A DNA stretch of 64,000 nucleotides from Candidatus Hadarchaeales archaeon (GCA_038872135.1 JAVZGN010000001.1:147-64146), one strand, 5' to 3'. Positions 1,628 to 62,383 are shown, numbered from the stretch's first letter. Made by a program: numbers and translations. The notes: generated from the letters alone by a model not told the origin.

Positions 1628-1953
1628 TGGCAGCATTCACCTGGGATCCGGTGACTGTCACCGTCACAATATTTCTCGGTGCACTACTCGGTTATGTGTT
1701 CATCTACCTCGGAAGAGCCATCACGAAGCCTGCTCCGAAGCCCCTTAAGCTCAAAAATTATGCTTGCGGCGAGGAGCCTCTCCCGGCCCATCCCGACAGC
1801 GAGCAATTTTTTTCTGCTGTAAGAAGAGTTGTTAGGCCGTTCTACCAGCACGTCCAGCGAGCCCACACAGGCATCATCAGCACATATCTTCTCTGGATGG
1901 TCCTCGGGATGATAGTGATTTTTATAGTGCTTTTCCTCACGGTGATGAAATGA
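1624..1953 (+). CDS. small membrane subunit of the Mbh-type hydrogenase (MbhI-like)
   Basis: The 109-aa product has two predicted TM helices. It overlaps the upstream gene at ATGA and the next gene by 4 nt, indicating translational coupling. It sits in the MbhI position. Confidence 0.5.
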   Translation: MMAAFTWDPVTVTVTIFLGALLGYVFIYLGRAITKPAPKPLKLKNYACGEEPLPAHPDSEQFFSAVRRVVRPFYQHVQRAHTGIISTYLLWMVLGMIVIFIVLFLTVMK

Positions 1954-2366
1954 GCGTGGCGGGCTTTTTCAGGAAGAAGTCCCCCTGGATCCTGCACTTC
2001 GACACCGGGGGCTGCAATGGATGCTCGATAGAGGTGGTGGCCGCTCTTACACCAAGATACGACGTTGAGCGTTTCGGAATGGTGGCGAAAGGAACACCCA
2101 GACACGCAGATATCTTGGTTGTCACGGGGGCAGTGACAAAGCAGTGCCTTCCGAGGCTCCTGAACATCTATGAGCAGATGCCGGAGCCAAAGCTGGTTGT
2201 GGCGGTCGGCGCATGCGCATCTTCCGCCAGCCCCTTCCAAGGATGCTATAATGTCGTCGGCCCCTTGGATAAACATCTCCCGGTGGCAGCATATGTCCCT
2301 GGATGTCCTCCAAGACCTGAGGCAATCATCGACGGGTTGCTGAAGATTCTGGGGAGGTTGGAGTAA
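1950..2366 (+). CDS. mbhJ: [NiFe] hydrogenase small subunit, NuoB-like (MbhJ-like)
   Basis: It carries the NuoB-family Cys pattern CNGCSIEV...GACASSASPF...VPGCPPRPE that ligates the proximal [4Fe-4S] cluster. Confidence 0.85.
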   Translation: MSVAGFFRKKSPWILHFDTGGCNGCSIEVVAALTPRYDVERFGMVAKGTPRHADILVVTGAVTKQCLPRLLNIYEQMPEPKLVVAVGACASSASPFQGCYNVVGPLDKHLPVAAYVPGCPPRPEAIIDGLLKILGRLE

Positions 2367-2785
2367 TGGAGGTTCGGGAAGTTCTAGAGATCATCGGCCC
2401 ATTCGTGAAGGATGTGAAGGCAGACAAAAATCACATTTTCGCAATTTCAAGCGTCCAGGATTTAAGAAATGTCTTTAAGCTCCTTTCAGAAAAAGGGATT
2501 GTACACGTCTCGGATATTACGGGTGTTGACCTTGGAGATTCTGTAGCGGTGATTTACAGACTCGACTGTAGGCCATCTTTTCTTAATTTAAAAATCTTCC
2601 TCCCGAAAAATGATTTAAGAATCCGCACGATTACAGACATCTTTCCCGGGGCATCCCTCTATGAGCGTGATTTGATGGAGATGTTTGGAATAAAGATCGA
2701 GGCACATCCAGACCCAAGGAAACTTTTCCTCCCCGATGATTGGCCCGAGGGAGTTTACCCGTTGAGAAAGGAGGTCAAACAATGA
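2366..2785 (+). CDS. mbhK: NuoC-like hydrogenase subunit (MbhK-like)
   Basis: The 139-aa product has the NuoC/30-kDa subunit fold signature (ERDLMEMFGIKIEAHPDPRKLFLPDDWPEG). Its stop overlaps the next start at ATGA. Confidence 0.75.
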   Translation: MEVREVLEIIGPFVKDVKADKNHIFAISSVQDLRNVFKLLSEKGIVHVSDITGVDLGDSVAVIYRLDCRPSFLNLKIFLPKNDLRIRTITDIFPGASLYERDLMEMFGIKIEAHPDPRKLFLPDDWPEGVYPLRKEVKQ

Positions 2786-3930
2786 CAATGGTTCTCCCAA
2801 TTGGTCCACAACATCCAGCTCTAAAGGAAGTTGAGAATTTCACCTTGGAGGTCAATGGTGAGGAAATTGTTGGCGTGGACATCCGTCTCGGCTATTCGCA
2901 CAGAGGTATAGAGAGAGGAATGCAGGAGAGGACCTATCCTCAGGGAGTTTATCTTGCTGAAAGGGTTTGTGGGATATGCAACATCGCCCACTCAGCCACA
3001 TACTGCCTAGCAGTAGAGAAGCTGGCTGGAGTTGAAATTCCTGAGAGAGCGAAAATCATCAGGACAATCCTGCTTGAGCTTGAGCGAATTCACAGCCATC
3101 TCCTCTGGGCAGGGGTGGCGTTCTATGAGATAGGCTTTGAGACCCTCTTCATGTATACGTGGAGAGACAGGGAGATGGTCTTAGATGTCAGAGAGGCAAT
3201 TTCTGGTGCAAGACAGATTTCGGCCTCAAATGTTCCCGGCGGGGTAAGAAGAGACGTGAAGGCCGAGCACATCTCATTTGCTTTAGATGTCCTCAGGAGA
3301 CTGGAGGAATCGACCAAATACTACTTGGATGTCTGCACATCAGATCCAACAATCATCGCTAGGTGTTCAGGGGTAGGAGTTCTGAGCAAGCACGAGGCTA
3401 CAAAATTATGCGCAACCGGCCCAACCGCAAGGGCATCAGGAGTTGAATGGGATCTGAGAAGAAGAGATCCGTATCTTATGTATGAAGATGTTGATTTCGA
3501 TGTAGTGGTGGAAAAAGATGGGGATGTCTTTGCAAGAATTCTAGTGAGATTGAGAGAGGTTCTTGAGTCTATAAGAATAGTCAGGCAGCTGCTCGAAAAG
3601 CTCCCAGGAGGGCCGGTGAGGATGGAGATCCCAAAGAAAATAGATCCATCAGAGGCAATAGCGAGAACCGAGGCACCGCGGGGGGAATTGCTTTACTATA
3701 TGCTTTCGAATGGAACGGAGAGGCCTGAGAGGGTGAGGATAAGAACTCCAACATATGCAAATGTCCTTTCTTGGAAACCGATGTTCGCCGGTGCCACCAT
3801 CGCGGATGCTCCAATAATCATCGCCAGCATCGACCCTTGCTTCACCTGCTGCGACCGATTGAGCATCATAGATGTCAAAACAGATGAAAAGAAGCTCGTG
3901 GAGTTCAGGGAGCTGAGGGGGTTCAGATGA
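2782..3930 (+). CDS. mbhL: membrane-bound [NiFe] hydrogenase large subunit, group 4, NuoD-like (MbhL-like)
   Basis: The N-terminal Ni-binding motif is RVCGICNIAHSATYC and the C-terminal motif is DPCFTCCDR. A GGAGGT ribosome-binding site lies 7 nt upstream of the ATG at 2782. The ORF tracker's start at 2740 is probably too long. Confidence 0.9.
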   Translation: MTMVLPIGPQHPALKEVENFTLEVNGEEIVGVDIRLGYSHRGIERGMQERTYPQGVYLAERVCGICNIAHSATYCLAVEKLAGVEIPERAKIIRTILLELERIHSHLLWAGVAFYEIGFETLFMYTWRDREMVLDVREAISGARQISASNVPGGVRRDVKAEHISFALDVLRRLEESTKYYLDVCTSDPTIIARCSGVGVLSKHEATKLCATGPTARASGVEWDLRRRDPYLMYEDVDFDVVVEKDGDVFARILVRLREVLESIRIVRQLLEKLPGGPVRMEIPKKIDPSEAIARTEAPRGELLYYMLSNGTERPERVRIRTPTYANVLSWKPMFAGATIADAPIIIASIDPCFTCCDRLSIIDVKTDEKKLVEFRELRGFR

Positions 3931-4880
3931 TAGGCCAAGCACTAAACTTCCTTTTTTCCCTCTTAGTTTTTCCAGGGTTTCTCTTTGTCGCACTTCTTGG
4001 GCTTATTTATCTAGGATTAGATAGAAAATGCTGTGCCCACATGCAGCACAGGATCGGCCCGCCCATTTGGCAGGAAATCTATGATTTTGGAAAATTGATG
4101 ACAAAGGAAGACATAACCCCCGCAAACGCCGATCCCATCATCTTCAACGCAGCTCCTCTCTTGGCTCTCGGGGCGCTGCTCGCAGTGGCGCTGATAATTC
4201 CCATTGCTTCACCAAACCCATTGCTCTCTGGAGCCGCCGATGTTGTGGTTCTCATTTACCTCCTGAACCTTCCGGCGATAGCGATGATGCTTGGGGGCTA
4301 TTCCTCGGGCTGCGCTTTCGGTGTGGTTGGGGCGGGAAGACATGTAACGCAGCTGATGGGATATGAGTTGGTTTTCATCATCTCAATTCTATCAGTCGTC
4401 ATGAAGACAGGTTTGCTGGGAGTTTCTGAGATAGTTAAGTACCAGAGCCTCCATGGCTGGACATTGTTTGACCTACAGCTTCTCCCAGCCTTTTTGGCGG
4501 CCCTTTTTGCCGTCCAAGGAAAGCTTTTGAGAACTCCCTTCGACATTCCCGAGGCCCATCAGGAGATAGTCGCCGGCCCTCTTACTGAATACTCGGGACC
4601 AAAGCTTGCACTCTGGAGGCTAGCTTATGATATTGAGACGGTGCTTGTTTTTGGGCTTCTAGCCTCTCTTTTCCTCGGGGGGCCAACGGAGTACTTGATC
4701 GGAGGACTGAGAATTCCCGCCGTGGCAGATTTTATAGTGAAAACCCTCGTTCTCCTTTTCATCTCAGTGGTCATTAGGACGATCATGGCTAGGTTGAGGA
4801 TAGACCAGACGCTCAGGCTCTACTGGGGAGCCGGGGTTCTGCTGGCTTTGGTCAGCCTAGTTCTGGTGGGGGTGAAATGA
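3927..4880 (+). CDS. mbhM: NuoH-like membrane subunit (MbhM-like)
   Basis: The 317-aa polytopic membrane protein belongs to the NuoH/HycD family. Its start overlaps the upstream stop at ATGA. Confidence 0.8.
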   Translation: MIGQALNFLFSLLVFPGFLFVALLGLIYLGLDRKCCAHMQHRIGPPIWQEIYDFGKLMTKEDITPANADPIIFNAAPLLALGALLAVALIIPIASPNPLLSGAADVVVLIYLLNLPAIAMMLGGYSSGCAFGVVGAGRHVTQLMGYELVFIISILSVVMKTGLLGVSEIVKYQSLHGWTLFDLQLLPAFLAALFAVQGKLLRTPFDIPEAHQEIVAGPLTEYSGPKLALWRLAYDIETVLVFGLLASLFLGGPTEYLIGGLRIPAVADFIVKTLVLLFISVVIRTIMARLRIDQTLRLYWGAGVLLALVSLVLVGVK

Positions 4881-5206
4881 TGCCGAGGATCCTTCCAACT
4901 GTTTTGAAAAATCTTTTCAGGAAGCCAGCGACCCTCAAGTACCCGAAAGTGAAAAGAGAGCTCCCAGAAGGGTACCGGGGGGCGCCGACGATAGATAGTT
5001 CCCTCTGCGTGCGATGCTGGAACTGCATTCGGGCATGCCCGGTGAGGGCGATAAGTGTAAAAAAGGAGACGAGGACGCCGAGCATTAATCTGACCATGTG
5101 CATTCAATGTGGTGAATGCGCCGAGGCCTGTCCGACGAAGGCCATCAGGATGTCTAAGGAGTATGAGCTGGCCGTGGTTGATAAAGAGGCGGCAAAGGTC
5201 GAATGA
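4877..5206 (+). CDS. mbhN: 2x[4Fe-4S] ferredoxin-like subunit, NuoI-like (MbhN-like)
   Basis: It contains two CxxCxxCxxxCP motifs (CVRCWNCIRACP and CIQCGECAEACP). It is the last gene of the operon. Confidence 0.85.
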   Translation: MMPRILPTVLKNLFRKPATLKYPKVKRELPEGYRGAPTIDSSLCVRCWNCIRACPVRAISVKKETRTPSINLTMCIQCGECAEACPTKAIRMSKEYELAVVDKEAAKVE

Positions 5207-5809
5207 TCATTTTTTGGCGGTGGCCTCTTCTTTTGGAGCAAGTTTTTTCTGGTATACTCTAGCGCCTATCCCGATAGCGCTGGCGACCACACCGGCCCAG
5301 AACCCTCTCCCAAGGAAGATTTTTACCGGGGCTGTGATCGTGGCCGGACCAATTTGAAATGTAGCAACCGTGCCCCCCTGGAAATATGGAATGTTCAGCG
5401 ATTGGACTACCGAGCTCCCAGCCATAGATGAAAGAAAATTCGGAAGAACATTGTTGACGAGAAATGTTCCAACCACAATTGTTATCACAAGGCCAACCAC
5501 AGACCACAGCGGCTTCATCACCCCAAATCTGAAGAGCTTTCTGGCCCACCAGCTCCTTGGAAATATGGAAGCGAGGAGGACGAATGTTCCGCCTATCAAA
5601 AATGAGATTTTGGTTGCGAGCAGGAACAGCCCGATAAGGGGAGATTCCAGTGGCATTTCAGCTAGGCGCACATTCAGCTCAAATGGGGATGTCTCGAAGT
5701 GAAATGCCCTATCTCCCACCTCTACAATCCACCATGGGCCAAGGAACGGCAGGAGCAGCATCAGGACCCCCAGCCCAGCGCCGAGATAGTTTATTTCTGC
5801 AAGCTTCAT
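5207..5809 (-). CDS. hypothetical polytopic membrane protein
   Basis: The 200-aa product has several hydrophobic helices and a Lys-rich C-terminal tail. It is co-oriented and overlapping with 5806-6303. Confidence 0.4.
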   Translation of the reverse strand: MKLAEINYLGAGLGVLMLLLPFLGPWWIVEVGDRAFHFETSPFELNVRLAEMPLESPLIGLFLLATKISFLIGGTFVLLASIFPRSWWARKLFRFGVMKPLWSVVGLVITIVVGTFLVNNVLPNFLSSMAGSSVVQSLNIPYFQGGTVATFQIGPATITAPVKIFLGRGFWAGVVASAIGIGARVYQKKLAPKEEATAKK

Positions 5810-6303
5810 CTGGTGCCCTCCATCGAGATTTTTATTTCAATCCCAAGTTTTTCAATCGTGATTTCCCCTCCGCCCGATTGCCAGTTTCCCTGCCGCGGGT
5901 CGCTGCTGCATTTTCCCGTCAAGACGATAATTTTGTTTTCGTTTGGCAGAATTTGAGTCGGGGAGCTTGTGCTCAGGATCATCTTTTCACCATTTTTTGT
6001 GAATGTTATGGAAATTTCTTTAACCGTGAGCGAAAACGGGATTCCGGAGATCTCCAGAGGCAGTGTTGCGGTTTGGGTAGCCGGGTCGTATGTGGCATTT
6101 TCCTGTATCGGTCGCAGATTTCCCATGTTTCGCATGTTTAAAAAATTTTGAACATTTCCAATCGCAGATCCAGCGCCGCCAGTATCGATTAGAGTTTCCT
6201 GGATGTTCCAGTTGTGCATGCTGAAAGCTATCAGGAGGGGTCCAAGCGAGAGAGCTAGACCGAGCAACCTCAGCCCAAGCCCGAGGGCACTTTCCTTCTT
6301 CAC
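5806..6303 (-). CDS. hypothetical secreted/exported protein
   Basis: The N-terminus (MKKESALGLGLRLLGLALSLGPLLIAFS) looks like a signal peptide followed by a soluble domain. It overlaps the downstream gene by 4 nt. Confidence 0.4.
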   Translation of the reverse strand: MKKESALGLGLRLLGLALSLGPLLIAFSMHNWNIQETLIDTGGAGSAIGNVQNFLNMRNMGNLRPIQENATYDPATQTATLPLEISGIPFSLTVKEISITFTKNGEKMILSTSSPTQILPNENKIIVLTGKCSSDPRQGNWQSGGGEITIEKLGIEIKISMEGTR

Positions 6304-6615
6304 CGCACCAGCAAGAGGTTGGAATACATAAATATAATTGTAACTGGAGAGCGGCGTTCTTCGGAATTTCTAGCTTTGGGAGTTTCGCTAGTGCATGACG
6401 TATCTCTAGATTTCTAATCCGAGTTTTTTATTCAAAAACAGCTTCTGTCATGAGAGCTTCATTTTTCCCATTCCGGTTTTGTAAACGACCCCTGGGTCAG
6501 CCCGGAAATATGGACAGAGATGATCCAATCTGGCTGATGGCGAGGAATCCCCTGCTGATAGCCATTCACAATCCAAAACGATTATATCCCGTGTGAAGAG
6601 ACTTGAAGGATATAA

Positions 6616-7107
6616 ATGCCGGATGAGATGGCTCAGAAGGTTCTTCTATATGACCGGGAGAGATGCACCGGCTGCAGGGCCTGTGAGATGGCATGCGCTT
6701 ACAGAAACTTTAGAACTCTTACTCCCACAAAAACCAACATTTCAATTTTTCTTGATGAGAACTCCTTTTCTCTAGAAGCCATCCACTGTCTCCACTGCCA
6801 GGAGCCGGTGTGCATGGCCGCCTGTCCGGCAGAGGCGATAACAAAAGATGATGCAACTGGATGGGTGACCATCAACCCGCTGAAATGCATAGGATGTCGC
6901 TCATGCACATACGCCTGTCCGCTGGCAGCCTGCTGGTTTGATGAAGAAGTGAAAGTAGCATTCAAATGCAATTTCTGCGACGGAGACCCGAACTGTGCAA
7001 AGTTCTGCTCTCCTCAGGCCATCAGGGTTGCCACGAGGGAGGAGGCGATGAAGTTCGCAAGAGAAGAATATCTCACAGGAGGGAAAAAATGGGAGAGCAA
7101 GAGGTAA
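6616..7107 (+). CDS. 2x[4Fe-4S] ferredoxin-like subunit (HdrC-like or DMSO-reductase beta-like)
   Basis: It carries several Cys clusters (CTGCRACEMAC, CLHCQEPVCMAACP, CIGCRSCTYACP, CNFCDGDPNCAKFC). It is the first gene of a tightly coupled five-gene operon. Confidence 0.7.
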   Translation: MPDEMAQKVLLYDRERCTGCRACEMACAYRNFRTLTPTKTNISIFLDENSFSLEAIHCLHCQEPVCMAACPAEAITKDDATGWVTINPLKCIGCRSCTYACPLAACWFDEEVKVAFKCNFCDGDPNCAKFCSPQAIRVATREEAMKFAREEYLTGGKKWESKR

Positions 7108-7742
7108 AAAAACTGCTTGAAGATGCAGGTATTTCAAATGTTACTGTTCCCAGGCCGCGGAAAGTTTATGCCGAGATCTCCCCCCAGCATCTGAGAAATG
7201 CCGTTGAGACGATAATGAAAAACGGCGGGAGGTTTGTAATCATCGCCGCCCTCGATGCCTGGCTGAACATCGAGCTTTCCTATCATCTCGACATCGATGG
7301 GACCGGGATAGTGATGAAGGTGAAAATACCCAAGGAGAACCCAGAGCTTCCAAGCATAGCAGACATCACCCCAGCAGCAGAGTGGGCGGAGCGCGAGGCT
7401 TCTGAATTAGTGGGAGTGAAGTTCATAGGCAATCCACGACCAGAGAACCTAGTTCTTCCCGCCGGCTGGGATGGGAGGCCAATGGCAAAGCCTTTCAAGC
7501 CACCGGTTGATGAAAAGGTCGCTGGAGTCGCTGAGTCGATACTTTCGGTTGGCGCCACGGCCCCGATTTCATCCCTGATGGAAAGCAGGAGGGTGGAAGC
7601 AGGGTTACCGGCAAAGCCCCCCGCGGCATACACTTCTGAATCCAGCCTCAAGGAAATTCAAGATTTCGCTAGGAGCACAGGTTTCGCTGAAGAGGTTGGC
7701 TATGATCGGGAAAAGAGAAAGCTGAGAGGAGCGAGAAAATGA
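7089..7742 (+). CDS. NuoC-like hydrogenase subunit
   Basis: The tracked ORF at 6966 is over-extended. A GGAGGG ribosome-binding site precedes the ATG at 7089. The central domain has the NuoC fold (GGRFVIIAALDAW...YHLDIDG...AEWAEREASELVGVKFIGNPRPENLVLPAGWDG) and is followed by a low-complexity C-terminal tail. Confidence 0.65.
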   Translation: MGEQEVKKLLEDAGISNVTVPRPRKVYAEISPQHLRNAVETIMKNGGRFVIIAALDAWLNIELSYHLDIDGTGIVMKVKIPKENPELPSIADITPAAEWAEREASELVGVKFIGNPRPENLVLPAGWDGRPMAKPFKPPVDEKVAGVAESILSVGATAPISSLMESRRVEAGLPAKPPAAYTSESSLKEIQDFARSTGFAEEVGYDREKRKLRGARK

Positions 7743-8608
7743 GGAAATTTGCCCTTTTCCCCGGCTGCATCATTCCCCAGAGGCTCCCAAGCATCGAGAT
7801 AGCAGCGCGAAAAGTTTTCCAGGCATTGGGAATGGAGGCCGCCGAGATGAAAGGTTACAACTGCTGTCCAGACCCTGTGATTGCAAGATACATGAACAGA
7901 AACTTTGTCCTCTCCCTCTCGGCCAGAAATCTCAGCTTGGCGGAGGAAAATGGGCTGGATGTGGTGGTCCTCTGCAACGGCTGCTTTGAGTCTCTCTGGG
8001 AGGCAAATGAGAGTCTTCGGGAGGAAAAAACTAGAGAAGATGTCAACACCATCTTGAAGGAAGCTGGCAGAAGATATGAGGGGAGAAGCAGGGTGAAGCA
8101 TGTGGTGGAGGTGCTTTACGAGGATGGGATGATCGATGAAGTGAGGCGGCTGGTGAAGCATCCGCTGAGAGATCTCAAGCTGGCCATCCACTACGGTTGT
8201 CATCTCTTCAGGGAGGAGAAAGGGAAAGACATCTGGAGGAAGCCGAGGCAGCTTCAGGAGCTTGTGAAAGCAACTGGCGCCGAGGTGATTCCTTGCCCGC
8301 TTGACAAACTCTGCTGTGGATTTCCAGTTTCAGAAGTGGACAGAGAATATTCGCTCAAAAGGAATCTCCTTCCAAAGCTCCAGTGCTATTCCCATCTTGG
8401 AGTTGACGGAGTTGTGGTTGTCTGTCCGACCTGTAACATCCAGATGGAGTCCGGGCAGCTCTCCCTTAGAAGATATGGAGCAAACTTTTCAATCCCATGT
8501 CTTCATCTGGTGGAGCTACTGGCCCTGGCCTTCGGAGTGCCAGCTGCCGAACTCCACCTTGAGTTCCACCGGAGCCCGGTTGCCCAGCTGGCTCAGAAGG
8601 TGAAATGA
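7739..8608 (+). CDS. HdrB-like protein with two CCG (Cys-rich) domains (heterodisulfide reductase subunit B / SdhC family)
   Basis: The N-terminus MRKFALFPGCIIPQRLPSIEIAARKVF...NCCPDP is HdrB-like. The second CCG domain carries CGFP...CPTCNIQM. The gene is 4-nt coupled on both sides. Confidence 0.7.
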   Translation: MRKFALFPGCIIPQRLPSIEIAARKVFQALGMEAAEMKGYNCCPDPVIARYMNRNFVLSLSARNLSLAEENGLDVVVLCNGCFESLWEANESLREEKTREDVNTILKEAGRRYEGRSRVKHVVEVLYEDGMIDEVRRLVKHPLRDLKLAIHYGCHLFREEKGKDIWRKPRQLQELVKATGAEVIPCPLDKLCCGFPVSEVDREYSLKRNLLPKLQCYSHLGVDGVVVVCPTCNIQMESGQLSLRRYGANFSIPCLHLVELLALAFGVPAAELHLEFHRSPVAQLAQKVK

Positions 8609-9741
8609 TGGAAACAATAGTGATAGGACCATATCACCCGCTCCTTCTTGAACCTGAGGTTTACGAGGTGACGGTTAGAGACGGGAGGATAGTTGACGTT
8701 GCAATTAAACAGGGTTTCGCCCACAGGGGAGCCGAGAAGCTCATGGAGTCGAAGTCTCTAACTCAGGCTCTTTTTGTGGCGGAGAGGATATGTGGGCTCT
8801 GCTCTCAGGCTCATTCCACAGCCTACTGTCAGGCTGTCGAGAGAGTACTCAACCTCGAGATCCCAAAAAGGGCGGATTATATCCGGGCGCTTGTCTTTGA
8901 GCTCGAGCGCATCCACAGCCACTGGATGTGGTTTGCTCTTCTTTTCCACACCATCCACCAGCATGGAATTTTCATGAAGATACTCGATGCAAGGGAGGAG
9001 GTGATGGATCTCCTTGAAGAAATCTGCGGCAACAGGGTTCACTATTCAATCAACACTGTCGGAGGGGTGAGGAGAGATGTGAGCCCCAAGATTTTGAAAA
9101 GAATTGAGGAAGTTGTCGATAGAGCAGAAATTTTTTCCAGCGAGCTCATGAATTCTGTGAAGGAAACATCTCAGAGGCTTTCTGGAATTGGGCTGCTGCC
9201 AAAAGATAAATCCAAGGCCTGGGGGGCAGTGGGCCCAGTGCTGAGGGCATCCGGGATTGCCAGCGACATCAGGAGGGACGACCCATATTCAGTTTATCCC
9301 TCCCTCGATTTCGAGGTGTGTGTGGAAGATGGATGCGATGTTTATTCAAGGGCAATGGTGAGAGCCAGGGAGCTGTTTGAGTGCACCAAGATGATCAAGC
9401 AGATAGTGAAGGAAATCCCCCCTGGAGAAATAAAAGCAGATTTCCCAAAGCCAGTTGTTGGAGAAGATTTCAGCAGGGTCGAGGCCCCCCGGGGCGAGCT
9501 GATCTATTTTGTGAAGTTGAATGGAAGCCACAGGCCTGAGAGGGTAAAGCTGCGTCCCCCAACCTACGTGAACGACCCGGCCCTGAAGGAAATGTTGGTG
9601 GGGGAGAAGCTTTCAGACCTTCCGCCAATTCTAGAAAGCATTGACCGGTGCATCTCTTGCACAAACAGAGTGACGGTGATCGATGAAAAAAGCGGTAGAG
9701 TGAAAAAATTCACGTTTGAGGAGCTGGGGAGGATGGGATAA
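8605..9741 (+). CDS. [NiFe] hydrogenase large subunit, group-4 type (NuoD-like), second copy
   Basis: The N-terminal metal-binding motif RICGLCSQAHSTAYC and the C-terminal motif DRCISCTNR are both retained, so this is a real hydrogenase rather than a Nuo-like relic. The 378-aa product has no membrane partner subunits in its operon. Confidence 0.85.
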   Translation: MMETIVIGPYHPLLLEPEVYEVTVRDGRIVDVAIKQGFAHRGAEKLMESKSLTQALFVAERICGLCSQAHSTAYCQAVERVLNLEIPKRADYIRALVFELERIHSHWMWFALLFHTIHQHGIFMKILDAREEVMDLLEEICGNRVHYSINTVGGVRRDVSPKILKRIEEVVDRAEIFSSELMNSVKETSQRLSGIGLLPKDKSKAWGAVGPVLRASGIASDIRRDDPYSVYPSLDFEVCVEDGCDVYSRAMVRARELFECTKMIKQIVKEIPPGEIKADFPKPVVGEDFSRVEAPRGELIYFVKLNGSHRPERVKLRPPTYVNDPALKEMLVGEKLSDLPPILESIDRCISCTNRVTVIDEKSGRVKKFTFEELGRMG

Positions 9742-10613
9742 TGGAAATATCAGTTTACAGGCTGAATACAGGATCATGCAACGGCTGTGACATAGAGGTG
9801 GCAGCCGTCCTAGCTTCGAGATTTGAGGCTGAGAAAACAGGGGTGAAGGTCGTGGATGACCCTGAGAAGGCAAATGTCCTTGTGCTGACAGGAATTCTGA
9901 ACAGGAAAATGGTTGATGTGTTGAAGGAGGTCTACCACAAGATTAACGAGCCAAAGATCGTCATCGCCGTCGGGACATGTGCAGTTTCCAGCGGCATCTT
10001 CGGTGGCTCTTATGCTGTTGGTGGAACGTCGGATGAAATCATCCCCGTTGCTGCTTACATCCCGGGCTGTGCACCCTCGCCTCAAGAGATAATGGCAGCG
10101 GTCGCAGAGGTCGCGGCCCTCTCGAAAGATGAATTTCTAGCCCCAGAAGGATTCAGGGGTCTTCCAAGGGTCGATGAAGAAAAATGCACGGGCTGCGGGG
10201 CATGTGTCGTCAGCTGCCCCGCCCAGGCGATAGAGATGAAGGATGAGGGAAGAAGAAAAATCATCTATGTGAATGAAAAGTGCATAAGTTGCGGGAAATG
10301 TGAGGAGGTCTGCCCCGACGATGCAGTTAAGCTTGAGGAGAAAAGGCATCCGGCTTCTAGAAAAAGGGAGGGGATGAAAAGGGTTGTGGAGGAGCCGTTT
10401 GCCGTCTGTCCGGTTTGCGGTGGGGCGAGCATCCCAGAAAAGCAGGCAAAAGCCATTCTTGAGAGAGCGCTCTCGAATGCTCCATTGCTGGGGGAATTCA
10501 AAGAAAAGCTGGAGGGATCTGTTAGAATCTGCCAGAGATGTAGGAGGAGTGGAGGCGCGATATCTGAGGCAAAGGCACTCCTTTACAGCATTGCAGCGAA
10601 GGTCGCAGATTAA
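9741..10613 (+). CDS. NuoB-like hydrogenase small subunit fused to a 2x[4Fe-4S] ferredoxin domain and a C-terminal Cys4 motif
   Basis: The NuoB core (CNGCDIEVAA...GTCAVSSGIF...IPGCAPSPQE) is followed by CTGCGACVVSCP and CISCGKCEEVCP, and then by CPVCGG...CQRCRR. Its start overlaps the upstream stop (TAATG). Confidence 0.8.
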   Translation: MEISVYRLNTGSCNGCDIEVAAVLASRFEAEKTGVKVVDDPEKANVLVLTGILNRKMVDVLKEVYHKINEPKIVIAVGTCAVSSGIFGGSYAVGGTSDEIIPVAAYIPGCAPSPQEIMAAVAEVAALSKDEFLAPEGFRGLPRVDEEKCTGCGACVVSCPAQAIEMKDEGRRKIIYVNEKCISCGKCEEVCPDDAVKLEEKRHPASRKREGMKRVVEEPFAVCPVCGGASIPEKQAKAILERALSNAPLLGEFKEKLEGSVRICQRCRRSGGAISEAKALLYSIAAKVAD

Positions 10614-10630
10614 GCGCCAGATTTAAGCCG

Positions 10631-12124
10631 ATGGTTGGGAAGATTCATCTGATGACAGAGCAGCCAAAGATCTCCACAGTTTCTCTCCCAAAACAGATGT
10701 ACTTCTTCGGGCGGGAAGCCGAGATAAATGAGATAGTAGACTTCATGGCATCAGAAACTTGCAGGGTTCTTGTCCTCAAGGGAATTGCAGGAATTGGAAA
10801 GACTGCGTTGATTGCAAAACTGGTAGAAATGTATCGTAGCTCCAAGCACATCCTCTATATCAAGATCTATCCATACACAACTCTGAGAGGGCTCCTCGGG
10901 AGAGTGGCAGAGTTTCTGCAGGAGTTGGGGAGGGAGAATCTCAAGCGATATCTTGAGGGCAGGGAAATAGAGCTGGAGGGGCTTTTCAACGCTTTGCGGA
11001 AAGACCTTGATAGAAGCAATCTCCTCCTCATTCTGGATGATGTCCACTATGCGGTCGAAGAAATCACAAAAATCCTCACTCCTCTTCTAGATGTTTTAGA
11101 TGGCACAGATGCCAAAGTCGTGGTCTCGGGAAGGATGATCCCAAAGTTCTACGATAAGAGAGATACATTGGTGAGGAGAAGGCTGAAGGAGGAGATCCTC
11201 TGGGGGCTTGATGAGGCCGCCGCTGCGCAGCTTCTGAGGCAGAGGGGGATCGATGAAAAGTATATACAGGAAATATACCAAGCGACTGCCGGGCACCCCC
11301 TGATGCTTGAGCTGGTAAAACCCGGAAGCGTTATTGAGGCTGCGGAGTTCATAGAAAAGGAGATCGTTGAATCGCTAACTTTCGAAGAGAAAAAATTTCT
11401 CGAAGCCGCTTCAGTTTTCAGGGCACCTTTCTCCAGGGATGCGATTGAAGGAGACCCAGACACAATGAGAAAGCTTACCGAACGGCTGTTGATCAGGGAG
11501 GTCGATGGCAAATTTGAGGTTCATGAGATGATAAAAAATATATTCTATGGGAAGCTCACCGCTGAAGAGAAGGTGGGATACCACAGAGCGGCGGCAGAGT
11601 TCTATCTCAAACTCGGGACAAGCGAAGCGATAGTCGAGGCGATATACCACCTGATAAAGGGATACAGGCAGCAGCAGGCCGCTTCTATGGCCATAGAGCA
11701 TGGGTTCCGGTTGATCGAGGAGGGATATGGGGATGCGCTGCTTTCAGAGCTTTCAATGATCGAAGAGGCCGAGGTCCCAGATTTCTGGCCATACATAAAA
11801 ATTCTATCAGGGGATATTTACAGCGAAAAGGGGAGATTTGAGGATGCTATCAAAGAGTATGAGACATGCATTGAGTATACGGGGGCCGGGGAGCCGAGGG
11901 GCGGGCGTGAGATGTTCGCATACATGTGGTTTGGGGTTTCAAAGGAGTTGCTGAGGGCAAAGGCCCTGGCATATCTGAGAATAGGAGAGCTGCAGGTGAA
12001 AAGAGGAAAAATCGAAGAGGCGAGGGAGGCATACCAGCAGGCCCTAAAGGTGTTGAGGGAACTGAAATCTCCAGACGCAGATGAGATAGAAAGAAAACTT
12101 CAGGACCTAGAGGTGATGAAGTGA
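10631..12124 (+). CDS. STAND/AAA+-type P-loop NTPase with C-terminal TPR-like repeats
   Basis: The Walker A motif is LKGIAGIGKTALIAKL and the Walker B motif is LLLILDDVH. The C-terminal region has TPR-like helices (AYLRIGELQVKRGKIEEAREAYQQALKVL). No effector domain is present. Confidence 0.55.
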   Translation: MVGKIHLMTEQPKISTVSLPKQMYFFGREAEINEIVDFMASETCRVLVLKGIAGIGKTALIAKLVEMYRSSKHILYIKIYPYTTLRGLLGRVAEFLQELGRENLKRYLEGREIELEGLFNALRKDLDRSNLLLILDDVHYAVEEITKILTPLLDVLDGTDAKVVVSGRMIPKFYDKRDTLVRRRLKEEILWGLDEAAAAQLLRQRGIDEKYIQEIYQATAGHPLMLELVKPGSVIEAAEFIEKEIVESLTFEEKKFLEAASVFRAPFSRDAIEGDPDTMRKLTERLLIREVDGKFEVHEMIKNIFYGKLTAEEKVGYHRAAAEFYLKLGTSEAIVEAIYHLIKGYRQQQAASMAIEHGFRLIEEGYGDALLSELSMIEEAEVPDFWPYIKILSGDIYSEKGRFEDAIKEYETCIEYTGAGEPRGGREMFAYMWFGVSKELLRAKALAYLRIGELQVKRGKIEEAREAYQQALKVLRELKSPDADEIERKLQDLEVMK

Positions 12125-13092
12125 TTGAAAAAGCCTTGAGAGGGACTGTCGAGGTCGTGACGGAAGAGGAGTTGAGAGAACTCCTGAAGGGGAGATTTTC
12201 GGTTTACTGTGGATATGAACCCTCTGGAAAGATTCACTTCGGTCACCTTCTGACGGTGAGGAAGCTCAAGGACTTCCAGGAGATTGGGGGAAGAGTTGTG
12301 GTTTTGCTGGCAGATCTCCACGCCTATCTCAACCACAAGGGAACCTTGGAAGAGATAAGAAGGGTGGCAGAGTACAACAAGCATTGCTTCATCGCTTTGG
12401 GGCTCAATCCGGCAAAGACAGAATTCATTCTCGGGTCTTCGTTTCAGCTGGAGAGAGAGTTTCAGATGGATGTTTTACAGATGGCAACCTTCACAACGCT
12501 ACTAAGAGCTAGGCGTTCGATGGCAGAGATCGCGAGGAAGCTGGAGGACCCAGATGTTGCCCAGGTTCTCTATCCTCTGATGCAGGCTGTGGACATAGCT
12601 CACCTCAAGGTTGATATCGCCGTTGGGGGGATAGACCAGCGAAAGGTTCACATGATTGCGAGGGAGAACCTCCCGAGATTGGGGTATAAGAAGCCCGTTT
12701 GCGTCCACACACCACTTCTCCACGGAATCGATGGAGAGGAGAAGATGTCTTCGAGCAAGGAGAATTTCATTGCTATAGACGATTCACCAGAGGTCATCAG
12801 AAAGAAGATGGCGGAGGCGTTTTGCCCGCCAAAGGAGATAGAGGGAAATCCGGTGGTGGAATATGCCGAGCATCTGGTTTTACCGGAGTTCGGGCGGCTG
12901 GTGGTGGAGAGGCCCGAGAGGTATGGGGGAAGGCTTGAGATCACGAGCGCCCAAGAGCTGCGTGAGCTTTATCGGGAGGGGAAGCTTCACCCGGCCGATC
13001 TCAAAGCGGCAGTAGGGGAAAGTCTTTCAAGAATGTTTGCTCCTGTGAGGGAATATTTCTCAGAGCACCCAGAGGCAGCTCTGGATCGTTGA
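12121..13092 (+). CDS. tyrS: tyrosyl-tRNA synthetase, archaeal type
   Basis: It has the class-I HIGH-like motif (GKIHFGHL) and the KMSKS motif (KMSSS). LLADLHAYLN and DDSPEVIRKKM match archaeal TyrRS closely. It starts with GTG and overlaps the upstream stop. Confidence 0.9.
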   Translation: MIEKALRGTVEVVTEEELRELLKGRFSVYCGYEPSGKIHFGHLLTVRKLKDFQEIGGRVVVLLADLHAYLNHKGTLEEIRRVAEYNKHCFIALGLNPAKTEFILGSSFQLEREFQMDVLQMATFTTLLRARRSMAEIARKLEDPDVAQVLYPLMQAVDIAHLKVDIAVGGIDQRKVHMIARENLPRLGYKKPVCVHTPLLHGIDGEEKMSSSKENFIAIDDSPEVIRKKMAEAFCPPKEIEGNPVVEYAEHLVLPEFGRLVVERPERYGGRLEITSAQELRELYREGKLHPADLKAAVGESLSRMFAPVREYFSEHPEAALDR

Positions 13093-13163
13093 ACTTTTCG
13101 GATTGATGCCCTTGGAAAAATCTCGAGCGATTTCCGAAAATGGTGTAACTTCCTTGCTTCTGA

Positions 13164-13970
13164 TTATCCCTTCAATATCTTCAGCAGTCTCCTCGCATCT
13201 TCTGCCATGTAAATGTTGTTAAACATGCAATAGGTCTCCTTTCCCTTGGTTTTCCTGCATATCTCAGCCACCCGCTTCAGCTCTTCCTCAGAATATCGGT
13301 AGTTGTAGATTGATGGCTTCCCAAAGCCGTGGAGCCTGAAATATACAATTCTCTTCGCCCCGAGGTGGAGCGGAAGATTTCTGAGGGGATCAACCACATG
13401 AACGAGATCCAGTTCCTCGCACAGCTCCTTCACCTTCTCTTGGTGTTCCGGCCAGTCTCCCCGAGGCTCCCAGCCCAAGATGATTCCTTCCCTCTCAATT
13501 TTTGATAGAAACTTTCTCATGTTTCTTTCATTTTCCTCGGTGGCTCTGAAATTTGGCGGGCACTGGATGATACAGATTTTTGCCCCGAGTTCCTTGCAGA
13601 TTTCCATCGTTTTCTCCCAAGCCCAGAAGTTATCTCCAGTGGGTTTCAGCCACCCATACTCCCTTTTCTTCAGCTCTTCGGCGGTCATGCCAGAGCGGCG
13701 CCAAGTTGGGCTAGTCGGAAGGTGGGTAATCGCCTGCCAGGCCTTCATGCAGTAGATGAAACCTTCTGGGGCCTCTTCCCTCCACTTCTTCGCAGTTTCT
13801 GGTTTTGGAAGCCGGTAAAATGTGCTCTGGATTTCAACGGTTCTGAATGTTCTGAAATACTCGGCTTTTCCCACGGCCCACCCGCAGCATCCGACGAAAA
13901 TTTTCACCTCATTTCCTCCCAGCAATTTTTCTGAACAAGTTGATTCTCCTTCTCTGAAGCAGCTCCTCAA
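13164..13970 (-). CDS. DUF72 (YecE-like) family protein
   Basis: It has the DUF72 signatures FVGCCGW and TFYRLPKP. The true start is uncertain because the ORF overlaps the upstream hycI by 62 nt. Confidence 0.5.
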   Translation of the reverse strand: MRSCFREGESTCSEKLLGGNEVKIFVGCCGWAVGKAEYFRTFRTVEIQSTFYRLPKPETAKKWREEAPEGFIYCMKAWQAITHLPTSPTWRRSGMTAEELKKREYGWLKPTGDNFWAWEKTMEICKELGAKICIIQCPPNFRATEENERNMRKFLSKIEREGIILGWEPRGDWPEHQEKVKELCEELDLVHVVDPLRNLPLHLGAKRIVYFRLHGFGKPSIYNYRYSEEELKRVAEICRKTKGKETYCMFNNIYMAEDARRLLKILKG

Positions 13971-14433
13971 AGATAGATGTTACCTTATCCACGGCCTTTG
14001 CGACTTTTGGTCCCATCTCACTCCCAAAAATCGACTGCTCCACCTGTATTCCCAGAAGCAGCACCTTCACGCCCATCTCCTTTTTCAGGTATTCTGAGAT
14101 CATCGATAGGGGAAGAGTGTGAGTGGAGATACTTTTCCAGGTTATACTGTGTGGATCTGCGATTATTACATCTCCAGGTGATCCTCCGAAATCAGCAGCG
14201 TCGATGAATATAAGGTGGGATGGATTCAGCCGCTTTATCTTTCCCGTGATATTTTCAGGAGCCATTCCCCCAAGCAACACAGTGACTCTGTCTCCCATTT
14301 TCTTCTTCAAAATGTTTGCCACAGCGACACCAACCCCGTCGTCCCCCCTCAGCTCGTTTCCCACGCCAACAACAACGATTTTCTTTCCATCTTTTAGAAA
14401 ATCCTTTAGCTCATTGACTATTGCCGTTTTCAT
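13909..14433 (-). CDS. hycI: hydrogenase maturation endopeptidase (HycI/HybD family)
   Basis: The motif VVVGVGNELRGDDGVGVAVANIL is diagnostic for hydrogenase maturation proteases. The product is 174 aa. Confidence 0.8.
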   Translation of the reverse strand: MKTAIVNELKDFLKDGKKIVVVGVGNELRGDDGVGVAVANILKKKMGDRVTVLLGGMAPENITGKIKRLNPSHLIFIDAADFGGSPGDVIIADPHSITWKSISTHTLPLSMISEYLKKEMGVKVLLLGIQVEQSIFGSEMGPKVAKAVDKVTSIFEELLQRRRINLFRKIAGRK

Positions 14434-15155
14434 TTCACCAGCCGTTTGATTATTTTCTCGAGTTCAGCAGCGACAGCGGTTTTCAAAAGTTTTTTGGGTT
14501 CACCGATAGCTTTCTCAACTTCCGCATCGAATGGAAGAACTCCCAGAAATCTCACCCCAAGTTCTTCCGCAAGCTCTTTTGATAGAGGAGGCTCCCCGAT
14601 GCTCATGTTTTCCACAATCCCCTCGATTCTCATCCCGAGGGCCAAGAGACTCAGTGTCATAGTCCTGACGGTGGGAAGAGTGACTTTTGAAGGCGTGGAA
14701 ACAAGAAGAAATCCCGCCCTTCTAATAAACCTCGCAATATCCATAATTCCATCACCTCCTCCCGGTGGCATGTCCACAAGGAGAAAATCAAGGCTTCCCC
14801 ACCTGGTAACCGAAAGGAGCTCGAGGACAGCGTTTGAGACATCATACCCCCTGAGAAAGGATGGATTGCTCCCCACAAATGGAAGGATCGACATCAGCTG
14901 GATTCCTGCCACCCTCTGCGGAAGCAGCCCCCTGTCTTCTCTCACAACAGCTCTGTTTTCTCCAAGTATTGTCGAAAGAGATGGCCCATGGAGATCGAGG
15001 TCCAACAGCCCAACCTTTGCTCCCCTCTTTTTCATGAGGAGAGCTGTGAGAGATGTTACCAAGCTTTTTCCTACACCCCCCTTTCCGCTCCCTATGCATA
15101 GGATTTTTTTCACACCGGAAAGCATTCTTTCAGCAGCGAGAGGTCTTGGATCCAC
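14430..15155 (-). CDS. Mrp/MinD-family P-loop ATPase, probably a Thermococcales-type HypB
   Basis: It has the deviant Walker A motif GSGKGGVGKS. Its position between hypA and hycI matches the Mrp/MinD-type HypB described in Thermococcus. It is 4-nt coupled to hycI. Confidence 0.75.
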   Translation of the reverse strand: MDPRPLAAERMLSGVKKILCIGSGKGGVGKSLVTSLTALLMKKRGAKVGLLDLDLHGPSLSTILGENRAVVREDRGLLPQRVAGIQLMSILPFVGSNPSFLRGYDVSNAVLELLSVTRWGSLDFLLVDMPPGGGDGIMDIARFIRRAGFLLVSTPSKVTLPTVRTMTLSLLALGMRIEGIVENMSIGEPPLSKELAEELGVRFLGVLPFDAEVEKAIGEPKKLLKTAVAAELEKIIKRLVK

Positions 15156-15539
15156 TCATTCCACCTCAATCGATTCTATCCAGACACCCCTTCCGGCCTC
15201 AACCGAGAAATCGGGTGAACCGCAGCTGGGGCAGCGATGATAAGCGTGAATGGCTTCGGGGAGAAAGTGAATTGATTCAGCTCTTCTTCCCCGTGGATGA
15301 TAGTTCCATTCATTTCCGCAGCTTCTACATTTCATCCTTGCCATCTCATGCTTGAGAACAATCTCAGCTCTAGAAGCCGCCGTCTTCTTCGCCAGCTCTC
15401 TTAAAGCAGCTCTAAAAATTTTCTCATCTATCTGCTGGAGCTCCCCCAGAACTACTGTTATTCTCCTAATCGTTTTTCCGCCTTTTATTGCTTGGAGGGA
15501 GGTAGCAATAACTCCCTCCGCCAGAGCCCATTCATGCAT
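15156..15539 (-). CDS. hypA: hydrogenase nickel-incorporation protein HypA
   Basis: The real start is the internal MHEW, so the tracked ORF is over-extended. HypA has the zinc site CRSCG...CPSCG. Confidence 0.85.
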   Translation of the reverse strand: MHEWALAEGVIATSLQAIKGGKTIRRITVVLGELQQIDEKIFRAALRELAKKTAASRAEIVLKHEMARMKCRSCGNEWNYHPRGRRAESIHFLPEAIHAYHRCPSCGSPDFSVEAGRGVWIESIEVE

Positions 15540-15591
15540 ATTTCTCAAATTAACGGGAGTGATAGATAATAAGACTTTCCGCGGTGGGCGT

Positions 15592-15858
15592 CTATCGCGA
15601 ACGCAGGACGGCAATTCCCCAGATGACGAGCACAGGGATTATCATCGCAATTCCAATGCCTAGCGCTTCAAGGCTTGCATCCAGAAACTCTCCGCCCTCG
15701 TACCCCAGCACATGGTCGACCAGAATCATCACGGTGGCTCCCCAGAACATAAGGCTGAGGAATCCCAGCCTGTACTTTGGCTGGGAGAGAAACTTGGCAG
15801 TCGTCGCAATGATAGCAGCAATTAGCGTCGTTATTAACCACATTTTACCTCCTCCCAA
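15592..15858 (-). CDS. small membrane protein of a paralogous pair
   Basis: The 88-aa product has 2-3 TM helices. The motif L..WG..VM.LV.H....E is shared with the adjacent 15845-16249 product. Confidence 0.4.
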   Translation of the reverse strand: MGGGKMWLITTLIAAIIATTAKFLSQPKYRLGFLSLMFWGATVMILVDHVLGYEGGEFLDASLEALGIGIAMIIPVLVIWGIAVLRSR

Positions 15859-52554: not shown

Positions 52555-52555
52555 C

Positions 52556-53362: not shown

Positions 53363-53370
53363 TTAATCAT

Positions 53371-62355: not shown

Positions 62356-62383
62356 CAATCCCTTATCTGCAAAGGGCATAAAT

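Follow-up and report, generated by a model that had tools for sequence, protein, structure and literature searches.

A five-gene operon of a Candidatus Hadarchaeales archaeon probably encodes a cytoplasmic group-4 [NiFe] hydrogenase coupled to an HdrB-type disulfide reductase subunit

Here, we analyze a five-gene operon located at 6616-10613 (+ strand) in a 64,000-nt stretch of DNA from a Candidatus Hadarchaeales archaeon (GCA_038872135.1, JAVZGN010000001.1:147-64146); we refer to this whole stretch as the window and count positions from its first letter. The operon consists of five intact, overlapping open reading frames (ORFs), designated g1 to g5, for a ferredoxin, a NuoC-like protein, HdrB, the large subunit (LSU) of a group-4 [NiFe] hydrogenase, and a fused small subunit. 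Based on the gene content, the cofactor ligands and homologies of the products, the lack of transmembrane (TM) segments and of genes for membrane subunits, the conservation of the arrangement, and the existence of a membrane-bound relative, we suggest that the operon probably encodes a cytoplasmic five-subunit [NiFe] hydrogenase:disulfide reductase that has no ion-translocating module, is wired similarly to formate hydrogenlyase (FHL), and derives from a membrane-bound ancestor resembling the Ehd hydrogenases. A first-pass annotation of this DNA had proposed a cytoplasmic H2-dependent reductase of a disulfide with an unusual composition. The soluble combination of a group-4 hydrogenase with HdrB is supported by our analyses, but the pairing of the two was already known. 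We looked for an LSU of group 3, for membrane genes that always follow downstream, and for missing Cys residues in the CCG protein, and found none of them.

Subunits and cofactor sites

The LSU, encoded by g4 (8605-9741, + strand; 378 aa), matches the Pfam families Complex1_49kDa (E 1.6e-62) and NiFeSe_Hases and contains both Ni-binding Cys pairs, i.e., RICGLCSQAH (L1; C63 and C66) and DRCISCTNR (L2; C349 and C352). After R355, it has a 23-aa C-terminal extension, which we take to be the arrangement cut by HycI-type proteases. Among solved structures, g4 scored best with MbhL of Pyrococcus furiosus (6cfw_L, 230 bits) and HycE of Escherichia coli (7z0s_E, 228 bits), followed by the non-hydrogenase Mbs (~180 bits), NuoD (~145-170 bits), the group-3 enzyme Frh (63 bits), group-1 enzymes (~60 bits), and NiFeSe (60 bits); MvhA was not among the matches listed. 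By sequence similarity, g4 is assigned to group 4 and not to group 3, in agreement with the first-pass annotation. Because g4 is only 41% identical to the MbhL of the same genome, encoded 5 kb upstream, we regard it as an old paralogue of this protein. Its best database match is 100% identical and stems from a metagenome-assembled genome of Candidatus Hadarchaeales. Of the 120 nearest LSU clusters, 119 have both Cys pairs, whereas the NuoD sequences of the same tree (see below) lack them.

g5 (9741-10613, + strand; 290 aa) encodes a NuoB/HycG/MbhJ-type small subunit fused to a HycF/NuoI-type domain, with an Oxidored_q6 domain, two CxxCxxCxxxC motifs, and a CPVC...CQRC signature. Residues 5-122 align with MbhJ and HycG (106 bits for the MbhJ-like domain against P. 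furiosus Mbh) and provide the ligands of the proximal [4Fe-4S] cluster (C13, C16, C80, and C110); residues 133-270 align with HycF and hold two further [4Fe-4S] clusters, giving three sites in the entire protein. The Cys4 tail that had been noted behind the two-cluster domain is real and corresponds to a described metal site: C223, C226, C264, and C267 align with the HycF quartet C117/C120/C155/C158, which in the structure of E. coli FHL binds a single metal ion on a C-terminal extension that touches HycB (PMC9474812). Consistently, an AlphaFold (AF2) model of g5 based on a 49-sequence alignment (mean predicted local distance difference test score 90) had HycF as the top Foldseek matches (7z0s_F/7z0t_F; target template-modelling score 0.75-0.87, root-mean-square deviation 1.6-2.1 A), followed by MbhJ and HycG. 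The NuoB::HycF fusion was recovered in 116 full-length clusters at 90% identity, the available source labels of which are Hadarchaeales/Hadesarchaea, Bathyarchaeia, and Thermoproteota. All 16 Cys residues are kept in 114-116 of these 116 clusters, which argues for strong purifying selection.

g3 (7739-8608, + strand; 289 aa) encodes HdrB, the presumed disulfide-reducing site of the complex. PF02754 (CCG domain) was matched twice, and the protein aligns end to end with solved HdrB chains at 216, 214, 205, 198, and 180 bits (8rvu_b at 216, 5odc_B at 205, and 8rvv_B also among them), with all 10 cluster Cys residues of both CCG domains conserved. Moreover, the Glu that follows the first CxxC and the His within GCH match E87 and H154 of HdrB from M. 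maripaludis, which have been proposed to act in proton transfer (PMC13518236). Against the HdrB model TIGR03288, g3 scored 254 bits, which is below the equivalog cutoff of 345; the scores against related models were far lower still (SdhE, 139 bits; TfrB, 64 bits; GlpC, 20-30 bits). hdrB lies between the nuoC and LSU genes with a 4-nt overlap on each side, and this position is kept in all relatives.

The product of g1 (6616-7107, + strand; 163 aa) had been described as a two-cluster, HdrC-like ferredoxin. Our data do not support this description. The protein contains 16 Cys residues in four [4Fe-4S] cluster motifs (Pfam Fer4_11) and is of the HycB/AorA/DmsB type; it aligns over all 16 Cys residues with the electron-transfer subunit of an aldehyde oxidoreductase (AOR; PDB 8c0z_C, 94 bits) and matches HycB of FHL (7z0s_B, E 3e-12) and HycB3 of the hydrogen-dependent CO2 reductase (HDCR). 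HdrC was absent from the structure matches of g1, and no HdrC hit was obtained for this protein. On these homologies, g1 is a four-cluster HycB-type wire rather than a two-cluster HdrC, and we propose that it serves as an electron wire or port. It comes first in 22 of 24 complete loci (see below).

An HdrC element is nevertheless present in the operon, not as a separate ferredoxin but as a C-terminal arm on g2 (7089-7742, + strand; 217 aa). Residues 29-137 of g2 have the NuoC fold (Pfam Complex1_30kDa), as had been predicted, and the protein contains no Cys. As a single sequence, its tail (residues ~140-217, nt ~7506-7739) matches the C terminus of HdrC weakly (E 1.7e-3 to 4e-3). The five top PDB matches of a profile built from 11 family g2 tails are all HdrC chains and cover their last ~65 residues, with E-values of 1.8e-10 (8rvu_c), 6e-10 (5odc_C), 6e-8 (9sfi_E), and 2e-3 (7bkb_C) among them. 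Similarly, tblastn with the genuine HdrC of locus L091 matched the window at 7530-7730, i.e., in the g2 tail. A tail of this type is kept in every relative, soluble or membrane-bound, and is absent from the neighboring MbhK. Judged from these alignments, g2 is homologous to the HdrC arm over its C-terminal ~70-75 residues. The HdrC ferredoxin core (2x[4Fe-4S], Fer4_8/Fer4_17, TIGR03290) was found in none of the five subunits; only the arm of HdrC is present, on NuoC. By exhaustive phmmer search, we found the combination of NuoC and tail in ~20 clusters (50% identity); a word-indexed homologue search with g2 returned 4 proteins only.

The tight coupling of the five genes that had been noted was borne out, with overlaps of 19 nt between g1 and g2, 4 nt (ATGA) each between g2 and g3 and between g3 and g4, and 1 nt (TAATG) between g4 and g5, and a GGAGG-like motif before each of the junctions. 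We place the start of g2 at the ATG at 7089 and not at the in-frame upstream ATG at 6966 of the ORF list, because the former is preceded by GGAGGG and the resulting 217-aa product fits the length of all homologues. The operon is preceded by a 312-bp intergenic region, at the end of which a putative archaeal promoter (6581-6615, + strand) with a TTATAT box ~30 nt before the ATG of g1 can be read from the sequence; we give it low weight.

Genes for hydrogenase maturation had been reported close to the operon, and they are indeed found at 13.9-15.6 kb on the - strand. They encode a HycI-type endopeptidase (13909-14433; PF01750, E 1.7e-16), a Mrp/NBP35-type P-loop ATPase (14430-15155; PF10609), and HypA (15156-15614; PF01155). 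HycI probably serves as an accessory protein for removing the C-terminal extension from g4, from MbhL, or from both, and it shares 38% identity with a HycI whose gene immediately precedes the five-gene cluster of the Bathyarchaeia locus L006. The ATPase and HypA are accessory proteins for nickel insertion and may be shared with Mbh. Together, the C-terminal extension of g4 and the nearby HycI/HypA set would imply a matured, active enzyme.

These features bear directly on the possibility that the operon encodes an Fpo/Nuo-like module without hydrogenase activity or is a decaying remnant. Homologues carry JGI names such as "NADH-quinone oxidoreductase subunit D", g4 scores high, although under threshold, with the NCBIfam models for NuoD and FpoD, and reduced "fpo" operons with hdrB2 have been described in thermophilic Bathyarchaeia (PMC8407382). 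However, true NuoD lacks the Ni-binding CxxC pairs that are nearly invariant among the relatives of g4, and a protease-cleavable C-terminal extension, with a HycI gene adjoining the L006 operon and another close to the one in the window, points to a maturing hydrogenase; a remnant, in turn, would hardly have kept all 16 Cys residues of g5, the 10 of HdrB, and intact, overlapping frames. We consider both versions effectively refuted and conclude that the operon encodes a hydrogenase. It may well be that the "fpo" operons with hdrB2 are this very cluster under an Fpo label. Correction of NuoBCD and Fpo annotations of such genes has consequences for metabolic models that describe H2 cycling in sediments or hot springs.

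Absence of a membrane arm and conservation of the arrangement

In a Kyte-Doolittle scan, which gave 12, 2, and 8 segments for the neighboring MbhH, MbhI, and MbhM, no TM-like segment was detected in g1, g2, g4, or g5. The one hydrophobic stretch, at residues 249-270 of g3, falls on a helix that is conserved in soluble HdrB of known structure and was not counted as a TM segment; thus, all five products appear to be soluble, as the first-pass annotation had assumed.

The five genes recur in the same order in Hadarchaeota and Bathyarchaeia, on contigs whose flanks differ considerably. After a metagenome scan, in which an alignment of five g2 tails served as the query, 24 complete loci (~19 non-redundant) were available, two of which have the permuted order g5-g1-g2-g3-g4. 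No homologue of NuoH, NuoL, MbhH, or MbhM was found within <=9 kb on either side of the cluster in these 24 loci. The occurrence of the arrangement on ~19 independent contigs with differing flanks argues that the operon is not an assembly fragment, and the five-gene form without membrane subunits is therefore a conserved one. A scan of genome contigs with a g2 alignment picked up a generic NuoC motif and returned 80 loci, mostly bacterial complex I, of which L009-L013 and L017 were informative. In a crude neighbor-joining (NJ) tree of 194 LSU/NuoD sequences, all LSUs with a verified soluble context fall into one clade of 111 leaves that excludes other groups.

Two candidate extensions were left out of this distribution. 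A clade of 393-aa LSUs (P0105-P0115) is among the top matches, but the one contig of it that was examined (L090, encoding P0115) carries an ordinary Nuo-like membrane cluster without HdrB, in which the LSU gene is accompanied by genes for NuoA, NuoB, and NuoC, a downstream gene with incomplete annotation, and genes of the NuoK/J-like and antiporter types; therefore, sequence similarity alone does not identify the HdrB-coupled type. An occurrence in Asgard archaea was suggested by L002 and L003 (GCA_030018135.1, labelled Candidatus Hodarchaeaceae by NCBI). This label is doubtful and may reflect mislabelling, mis-binning, or a confusion of names, because the flanks of these loci are syntenic with those of the Candidatus Hadarchaeum locus L004: all have genes for AdoMet synthase, AsnC, MJ1579, IF-2B, and an FeS-assembly protein, and then for NikR, an HD hydrolase, and acetyl-CoA synthetase.

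Membrane-bound versions exist among distant relatives from Desulfurococcales/Thermoprotei, whose LSUs are 47-50% identical to g4. These eight-gene clusters (L007:4828-11127, L013:5350-11648, and L017:5276-11602) have the order ferredoxin, 380-aa NuoL-like protein, NuoC with the HdrC arm, HdrB, LSU, NuoH, NuoI, NuoB, and their 184-aa NuoI/HycF-like protein already has the Cys4 extension. They probably match the "Ehd-like" type of the literature. The membrane-type LSUs have 5-14 additional residues at their N terminus that are missing from the soluble-type LSUs. Most simply, these gene sets can be explained by an origin of the soluble operon from the membrane-bound form, in which two membrane genes would have been lost and NuoB joined to NuoI/HycF. 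In L007, hypD, hypE, hypC, and hypF follow the membrane-bound version.

Alternatively, the five subunits could be the peripheral arm of a membrane-bound, ion-translocating complex, with the membrane subunits encoded elsewhere or borrowed from Mbh. In favor of this idea, Ehd, Ehe, and Ehg are described as membrane-associated and Drh putatively so, only 64 kb of the genome are visible, and an Mbh-type hydrogenase operon with NuoH/NuoL-like subunits lies 1.4 kb upstream. The latter (107-5206, + strand) encodes equivalents of MbhH-N in the order NuoL-like protein, small TM protein, NuoB, NuoC, NuoD with CxxC pairs, NuoH, NuoI, and its MbhL has the Ni-binding pairs CGIC and CFTC. The window begins just upstream of its NuoL-like gene, and the Mrp-type genes mbhA-G, if present, are outside it. 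However, Mbh has its own complete NuoB/C/D/I set, and no Mbh is found beside any other complete locus. For the same reason, the adjacency of Mbh, which the first-pass annotation had taken to support a functional hydrogenase, is real but carries little weight: it is seen in this genome only and is absent from all related loci. The lack of membrane genes near the cluster on ~19 independent contigs from at least two phyla, the covalent joining of NuoB to NuoI/HycF in 116 clusters, a start of g5 that in pairwise alignments lies ~22-35 residues later than that of MbhJ/HycG, and the missing N-terminal extension of the LSU all argue against a hidden membrane arm as well. Moreover, activity has reportedly been obtained with an MbhJKL subcomplex of P. 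furiosus engineered to be cytoplasmic, which supports the feasibility of a soluble core. We regard a hidden or borrowed membrane arm as improbable and favor a soluble five-subunit complex. Mbh and the operon are separated by two ORFs for membrane proteins (5207-6303, - strand), which were rejected as parts of the system, since they have no homologue near related clusters.

Proposed electron path, substrate, and neighboring genes

Because the parts list equals the FHL peripheral arm with HdrB added and FdhF missing, we propose the following electron path. H2 would be split or made at the group-4 [NiFe] site of g4, and electrons would pass via the proximal [4Fe-4S] cluster in the HycG-like half of g5 to the two [4Fe-4S] clusters in its HycF-like half, from there to the four [4Fe-4S] clusters of the HycB-like g1, and finally to the two non-cubane clusters of HdrB (g3). 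The NuoC-like part of g2 would sit on the large subunit, as in all complex-I relatives, and its HdrC-derived arm would tether HdrB to the complex; Wagner et al. reportedly observed in 2017 that the C-terminal region of HdrC packs against HdrB. The net reaction would be H2 + R-S-S-R' = RSH + R'SH in the cytoplasm and without ion translocation. In the absence of a membrane arm, the energy of H2-dependent disulfide reduction would not be conserved: the potential of CoM-S-S-CoB is about -140 mV, and with an acceptor of this kind roughly 50 kJ/mol would be lost. We speculate that a very low H2 threshold compensates for this loss; with a low-potential disulfide, the reaction could be reversible near equilibrium at subsurface H2 levels.

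Characterized group-4 enzymes (such as Mbh, FHL, and Ech) mostly evolve H2, with ferredoxin or formate as the donor, and the complex may therefore be a three-port redox hub or an H2-evolving enzyme rather than an uptake H2:disulfide reductase. As a hub, g1 might take electrons from reduced ferredoxin or a docked oxidoreductase for the reduction of protons or a disulfide; as an H2-evolving enzyme, the complex would oxidize a low-potential dithiol carrier and make H2 at a very low H2 partial pressure. The family of g1 does link a catalytic partner to a hydrogenase module in FHL and AOR, and some Bathyarchaeia-type relatives have suitable flanks. Specifically, the cluster is flanked by genes for HdrA-like proteins, FlpD/MvhD, HdrC, and HdrB in L091 (60-3787, - strand; 9375-15146, + strand), L107 (2903-6713 and 13174-18544), and L006 (12798-17128), and by genes for electron-transferring flavoprotein (ETF) in L107 and L089; the HdrA, MvhD(FlpD), HdrBC, and ETF modules at L091, L107, and L006 make or use ferredoxin and disulfides. 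Yet the operon lacks a flavin subunit, arguing against bifurcation inside the five subunits, and thiol-driven H2 formation is thermodynamically excluded at potentials like that of CoM-S-S-CoB. Moreover, hdrB is placed between the genes for NuoC and the LSU, and the HdrC arm is conserved; both argue that HdrB is a core catalytic partner and not an accessory. For these reasons, a hub or an H2-evolving enzyme seems to us rather unlikely, although plausible, and we retain the uptake hydrogenase:disulfide reductase. The Hdr and ETF flanks suggest a functional link to flavin-based bifurcating Hdr modules without their own hydrogenase, and the Hdr flanks fit a role of the complex in recycling the disulfide/dithiol used by such modules.

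Several points weigh against our interpretation of the operon as a soluble H2:disulfide reductase with an Ehd-like ancestor. (i) No gene for HdrA, MvhD, CoM/CoB, mcr, or a candidate disulfide carrier is present in the 64-kb window. (ii) The score of g3 below the HdrB equivalog cutoff implies that the substrate may not be CoM-S-S-CoB. (iii) g1 could be an entry port for ferredoxin instead of, or besides, a bridge to HdrB. (iv) With 64 kb of the genome in view, unlinked membrane partners could be encoded elsewhere. (v) The NJ tree puts NuoD sequences between the soluble and the membrane HdrB-linked clades, and the polarity from membrane-bound to soluble comes from gene content and not from a robust phylogeny. 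(vi) No purified enzyme of the wider HdrB-linked group-4 class was found in the literature.

With regard to the substrate, genes for GcvH-fold proteins are associated with the operon in several loci. They lie head-to-head with it on the - strand in L107 (8019-8507), L108 (76-519), L112 (206-664), L113 (5774-6232), and L114 (275-730), and 2 kb downstream of it on the + strand in L006 (12088-12690). All six proteins lack the lipoyl-lysine, with ETW[NMR]F in place of ESVKA; thus, lipoyl-GcvH as a disulfide substrate in its simple form can be rejected. The five head-to-head proteins all have a C-terminal HCKELCFGCPKKNC-type motif (Cx3-4Cx2Cx4C), and four of the five also have the Cys pair of GLCDFPLIC. 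The L006 protein has neither Cys motif and may be a regulator, given an N-terminal extension that by eye resembles a ribbon-helix-helix domain. The Ehe cluster of Culexarchaeia likewise includes gcvH, in addition to sdhA and cdhA (PMC9723716). We speculate that a dedicated small redox protein of this GcvH-like type, and not a free heterodisulfide, is the physiological substrate of HdrB; we consider this clearly unlikely for the operon studied here, and the gene is absent from the 64-kb window. If the GcvH-like protein cycled between dithiol and disulfide, as in the DsrC/DsrK case, the complex would be an H2:protein-disulfide oxidoreductase, which would keep a pool of protein thiols in equilibrium with H2 and supply the bifurcating HdrA/MvhD-type modules beside it in L091, L107, and L006.

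Among the remaining genes of the window, a STAND/AAA ATPase gene (10631-12124, + strand; 497 aa, with C-terminal TPR repeats) starts 17 nt past the last stop codon of the operon and overlaps a tyrosyl-tRNA synthetase gene (12121-13092, + strand) by 4 nt. Since none of the related hydrogenase clusters has a homologue nearby, this gene was rejected as a part; it is probably outside the hydrogenase system but may be co-transcribed with it here. Genes for ZIP-family metal transporters and NikR recur near the cluster in several Hadarchaeal loci (17774-18496, + strand, in the window; L004:10021-10746; ZIP and NikR in L099 and L101) and may reflect nickel supply or regulation for the hydrogenase. Further downstream, a GHMP kinase gene is paired with a gene for a UbiD-family decarboxylase (19893-22090, + strand; also L001:10737-12942 of Hadarchaeum), which we guess to belong to a variant of the archaeal mevalonate pathway. 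On the - strand, 50005-53907 holds a tandem paralogue array of five consecutive CBS-domain-only proteins of 178-300 aa each, and 58402-62397 encodes a 1331-aa protein with FG-GAP and Big_1 repeats that is probably a large surface or adhesion protein.

Relation to known hydrogenases

Group-4 [NiFe] hydrogenases are the closest relatives of complex I, and to our knowledge every known member has been described as membrane-bound or membrane-associated. A natural version that is widespread, strongly conserved, and free of a membrane arm shows that the group-4 core can be put to new use as a soluble redox module. The small subunit of this version is represented by at least 116 clusters at 90% identity, mostly from Hadarchaeota and Bathyarchaeia, which are two abundant subsurface lineages. 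The NuoC::HdrC-arm fusion provides a concrete, testable indication of the way in which an Hdr module became attached to a core of the complex-I type.

The first-pass annotation had assumed that HdrB and HdrC normally partner with group-3c hydrogenases; this does not hold as a general rule. HdrB-linked group-4 hydrogenases have been proposed from genomes between 2015 and 2022, all of them described as membrane-bound or membrane-associated (PMC9723716, PMC6046458, PMC12700198). Kohtz et al. (2022) list as "HdrB-interacting hydrogenases" Ehd of Methanomethylicia, Ehe of Culexarchaeia, Drh of Methanocellales, and Ehg of Nezhaarchaeia (PMC9723716), of which Ehg is expressed in a cultured Methanonezhaarchaeon. 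The "Ehd-like" group includes Bathyarchaeia (PMC9723716), and Ehd or "Ehd-like" enzymes are also found in Culexarchaeia and Muzhaarchaeaceae (PMC9723716, PMC12700198). The operon described here offers an all-soluble, five-subunit target on which the H2:disulfide chemistry suggested for Ehd, Ehe, Drh, and Ehg could be tested.

Ehd, for which the order EhdA-C, EhdD/hdrC, EhdE/hdrB, EhdF/NiFe, EhdG-I is listed (PMC9723716), resembles our operon in that the group-4 LSU gene directly follows hdrB, which itself follows a gene labelled "hdrC", and in the proposed interconversion of H2 and a disulfide. The eight-gene clusters of L007, L013, and L017 have a comparable order and contain every soluble subunit type of the window's operon. 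Ehd differs in that it is described as membrane-bound and energy-conserving, with an ion-antiporter subunit, whereas the operon has no NuoL- or NuoH-like gene and its NuoB and NuoI are fused. The orthology of Ehd and the window's operon rests on gene order and not on a tree.

By description, Drh is a group-4-type cluster with hdrB and without an antiporter-like subunit (Lyu and Lu 2015, as cited), and it has been proposed to reduce the heterodisulfide directly with H2 and without an ion gradient (PMC6046458, PMC9723716). Its transcripts in Methanocella are higher in syntrophic coculture than in monoculture (PMC6046458), which appears to be the only physiological hint in the literature. In contrast to the five genes of the window, with no membrane protein among them, Drh consists of eight genes (drhG, F, D, E, C, hdrB, drhH, drhB) and is described as "putative membrane-associated"; the name drhB suggests to us an EchB/NuoH-like anchor. 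In addition, the hosts of Drh are methanogens that use CoM/CoB, whereas the host of our operon belongs to Hadarchaeota.

Among structurally characterized enzymes, FHL (E. coli Hyc, group 4a; 7Z0S/7Z0T) shares with the operon the LSU (228 bits), a HycG-like subunit, a HycB-like four-cluster ferredoxin, a NuoC-like domain, and a HycF-like two-cluster subunit with the same C-terminal Cys quartet. However, FHL is anchored by HycC/HycD and receives electrons from FdhF, and the operon contains neither FdhF nor a membrane arm; HdrB would take the place of FdhF in the complex. HycE is a fusion of NuoC and LSU, whereas in the operon NuoC is separate and carries the HdrC arm, and HycG is fused to HycF. 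P. furiosus Mbh (group 4d; 6CFW) gave the highest scores among solved relatives, with 230 bits for the LSU and 106 bits for the NuoB-like domain, and has the same Ni ligands, but it contains membrane subunits of the Mrp and NuoH/NuoL types, its short MbhN lacks the Cys4 extension and its MbhK the HdrC arm, and it has no HdrB or HycB-like subunit. The group-3c complexes MvhAGD/VhuAGD-HdrABC (5ODC, 8RVU, and 9SW6) share a close HdrB homologue (205-216 bits), H2-dependent disulfide reduction, and the C-terminal arm of HdrC, which in the operon has moved onto NuoC. They differ in the group of the hydrogenase, and the operon lacks the HdrC ferredoxin core, HdrA, flavin adenine dinucleotide (FAD), and MvhD, so that flavin-based bifurcation is not expected inside the complex.

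In a literature search with most subscription journals outside its scope, we found no description of a fully soluble five-gene form, of the NuoB::HycF fusion, or of the NuoC::HdrC-arm fusion. Altogether, the pairing of a group-4 hydrogenase with HdrB is itself known from these systems, and the new elements are the soluble architecture, in which all membrane subunits are lost, and the FHL-like wiring.

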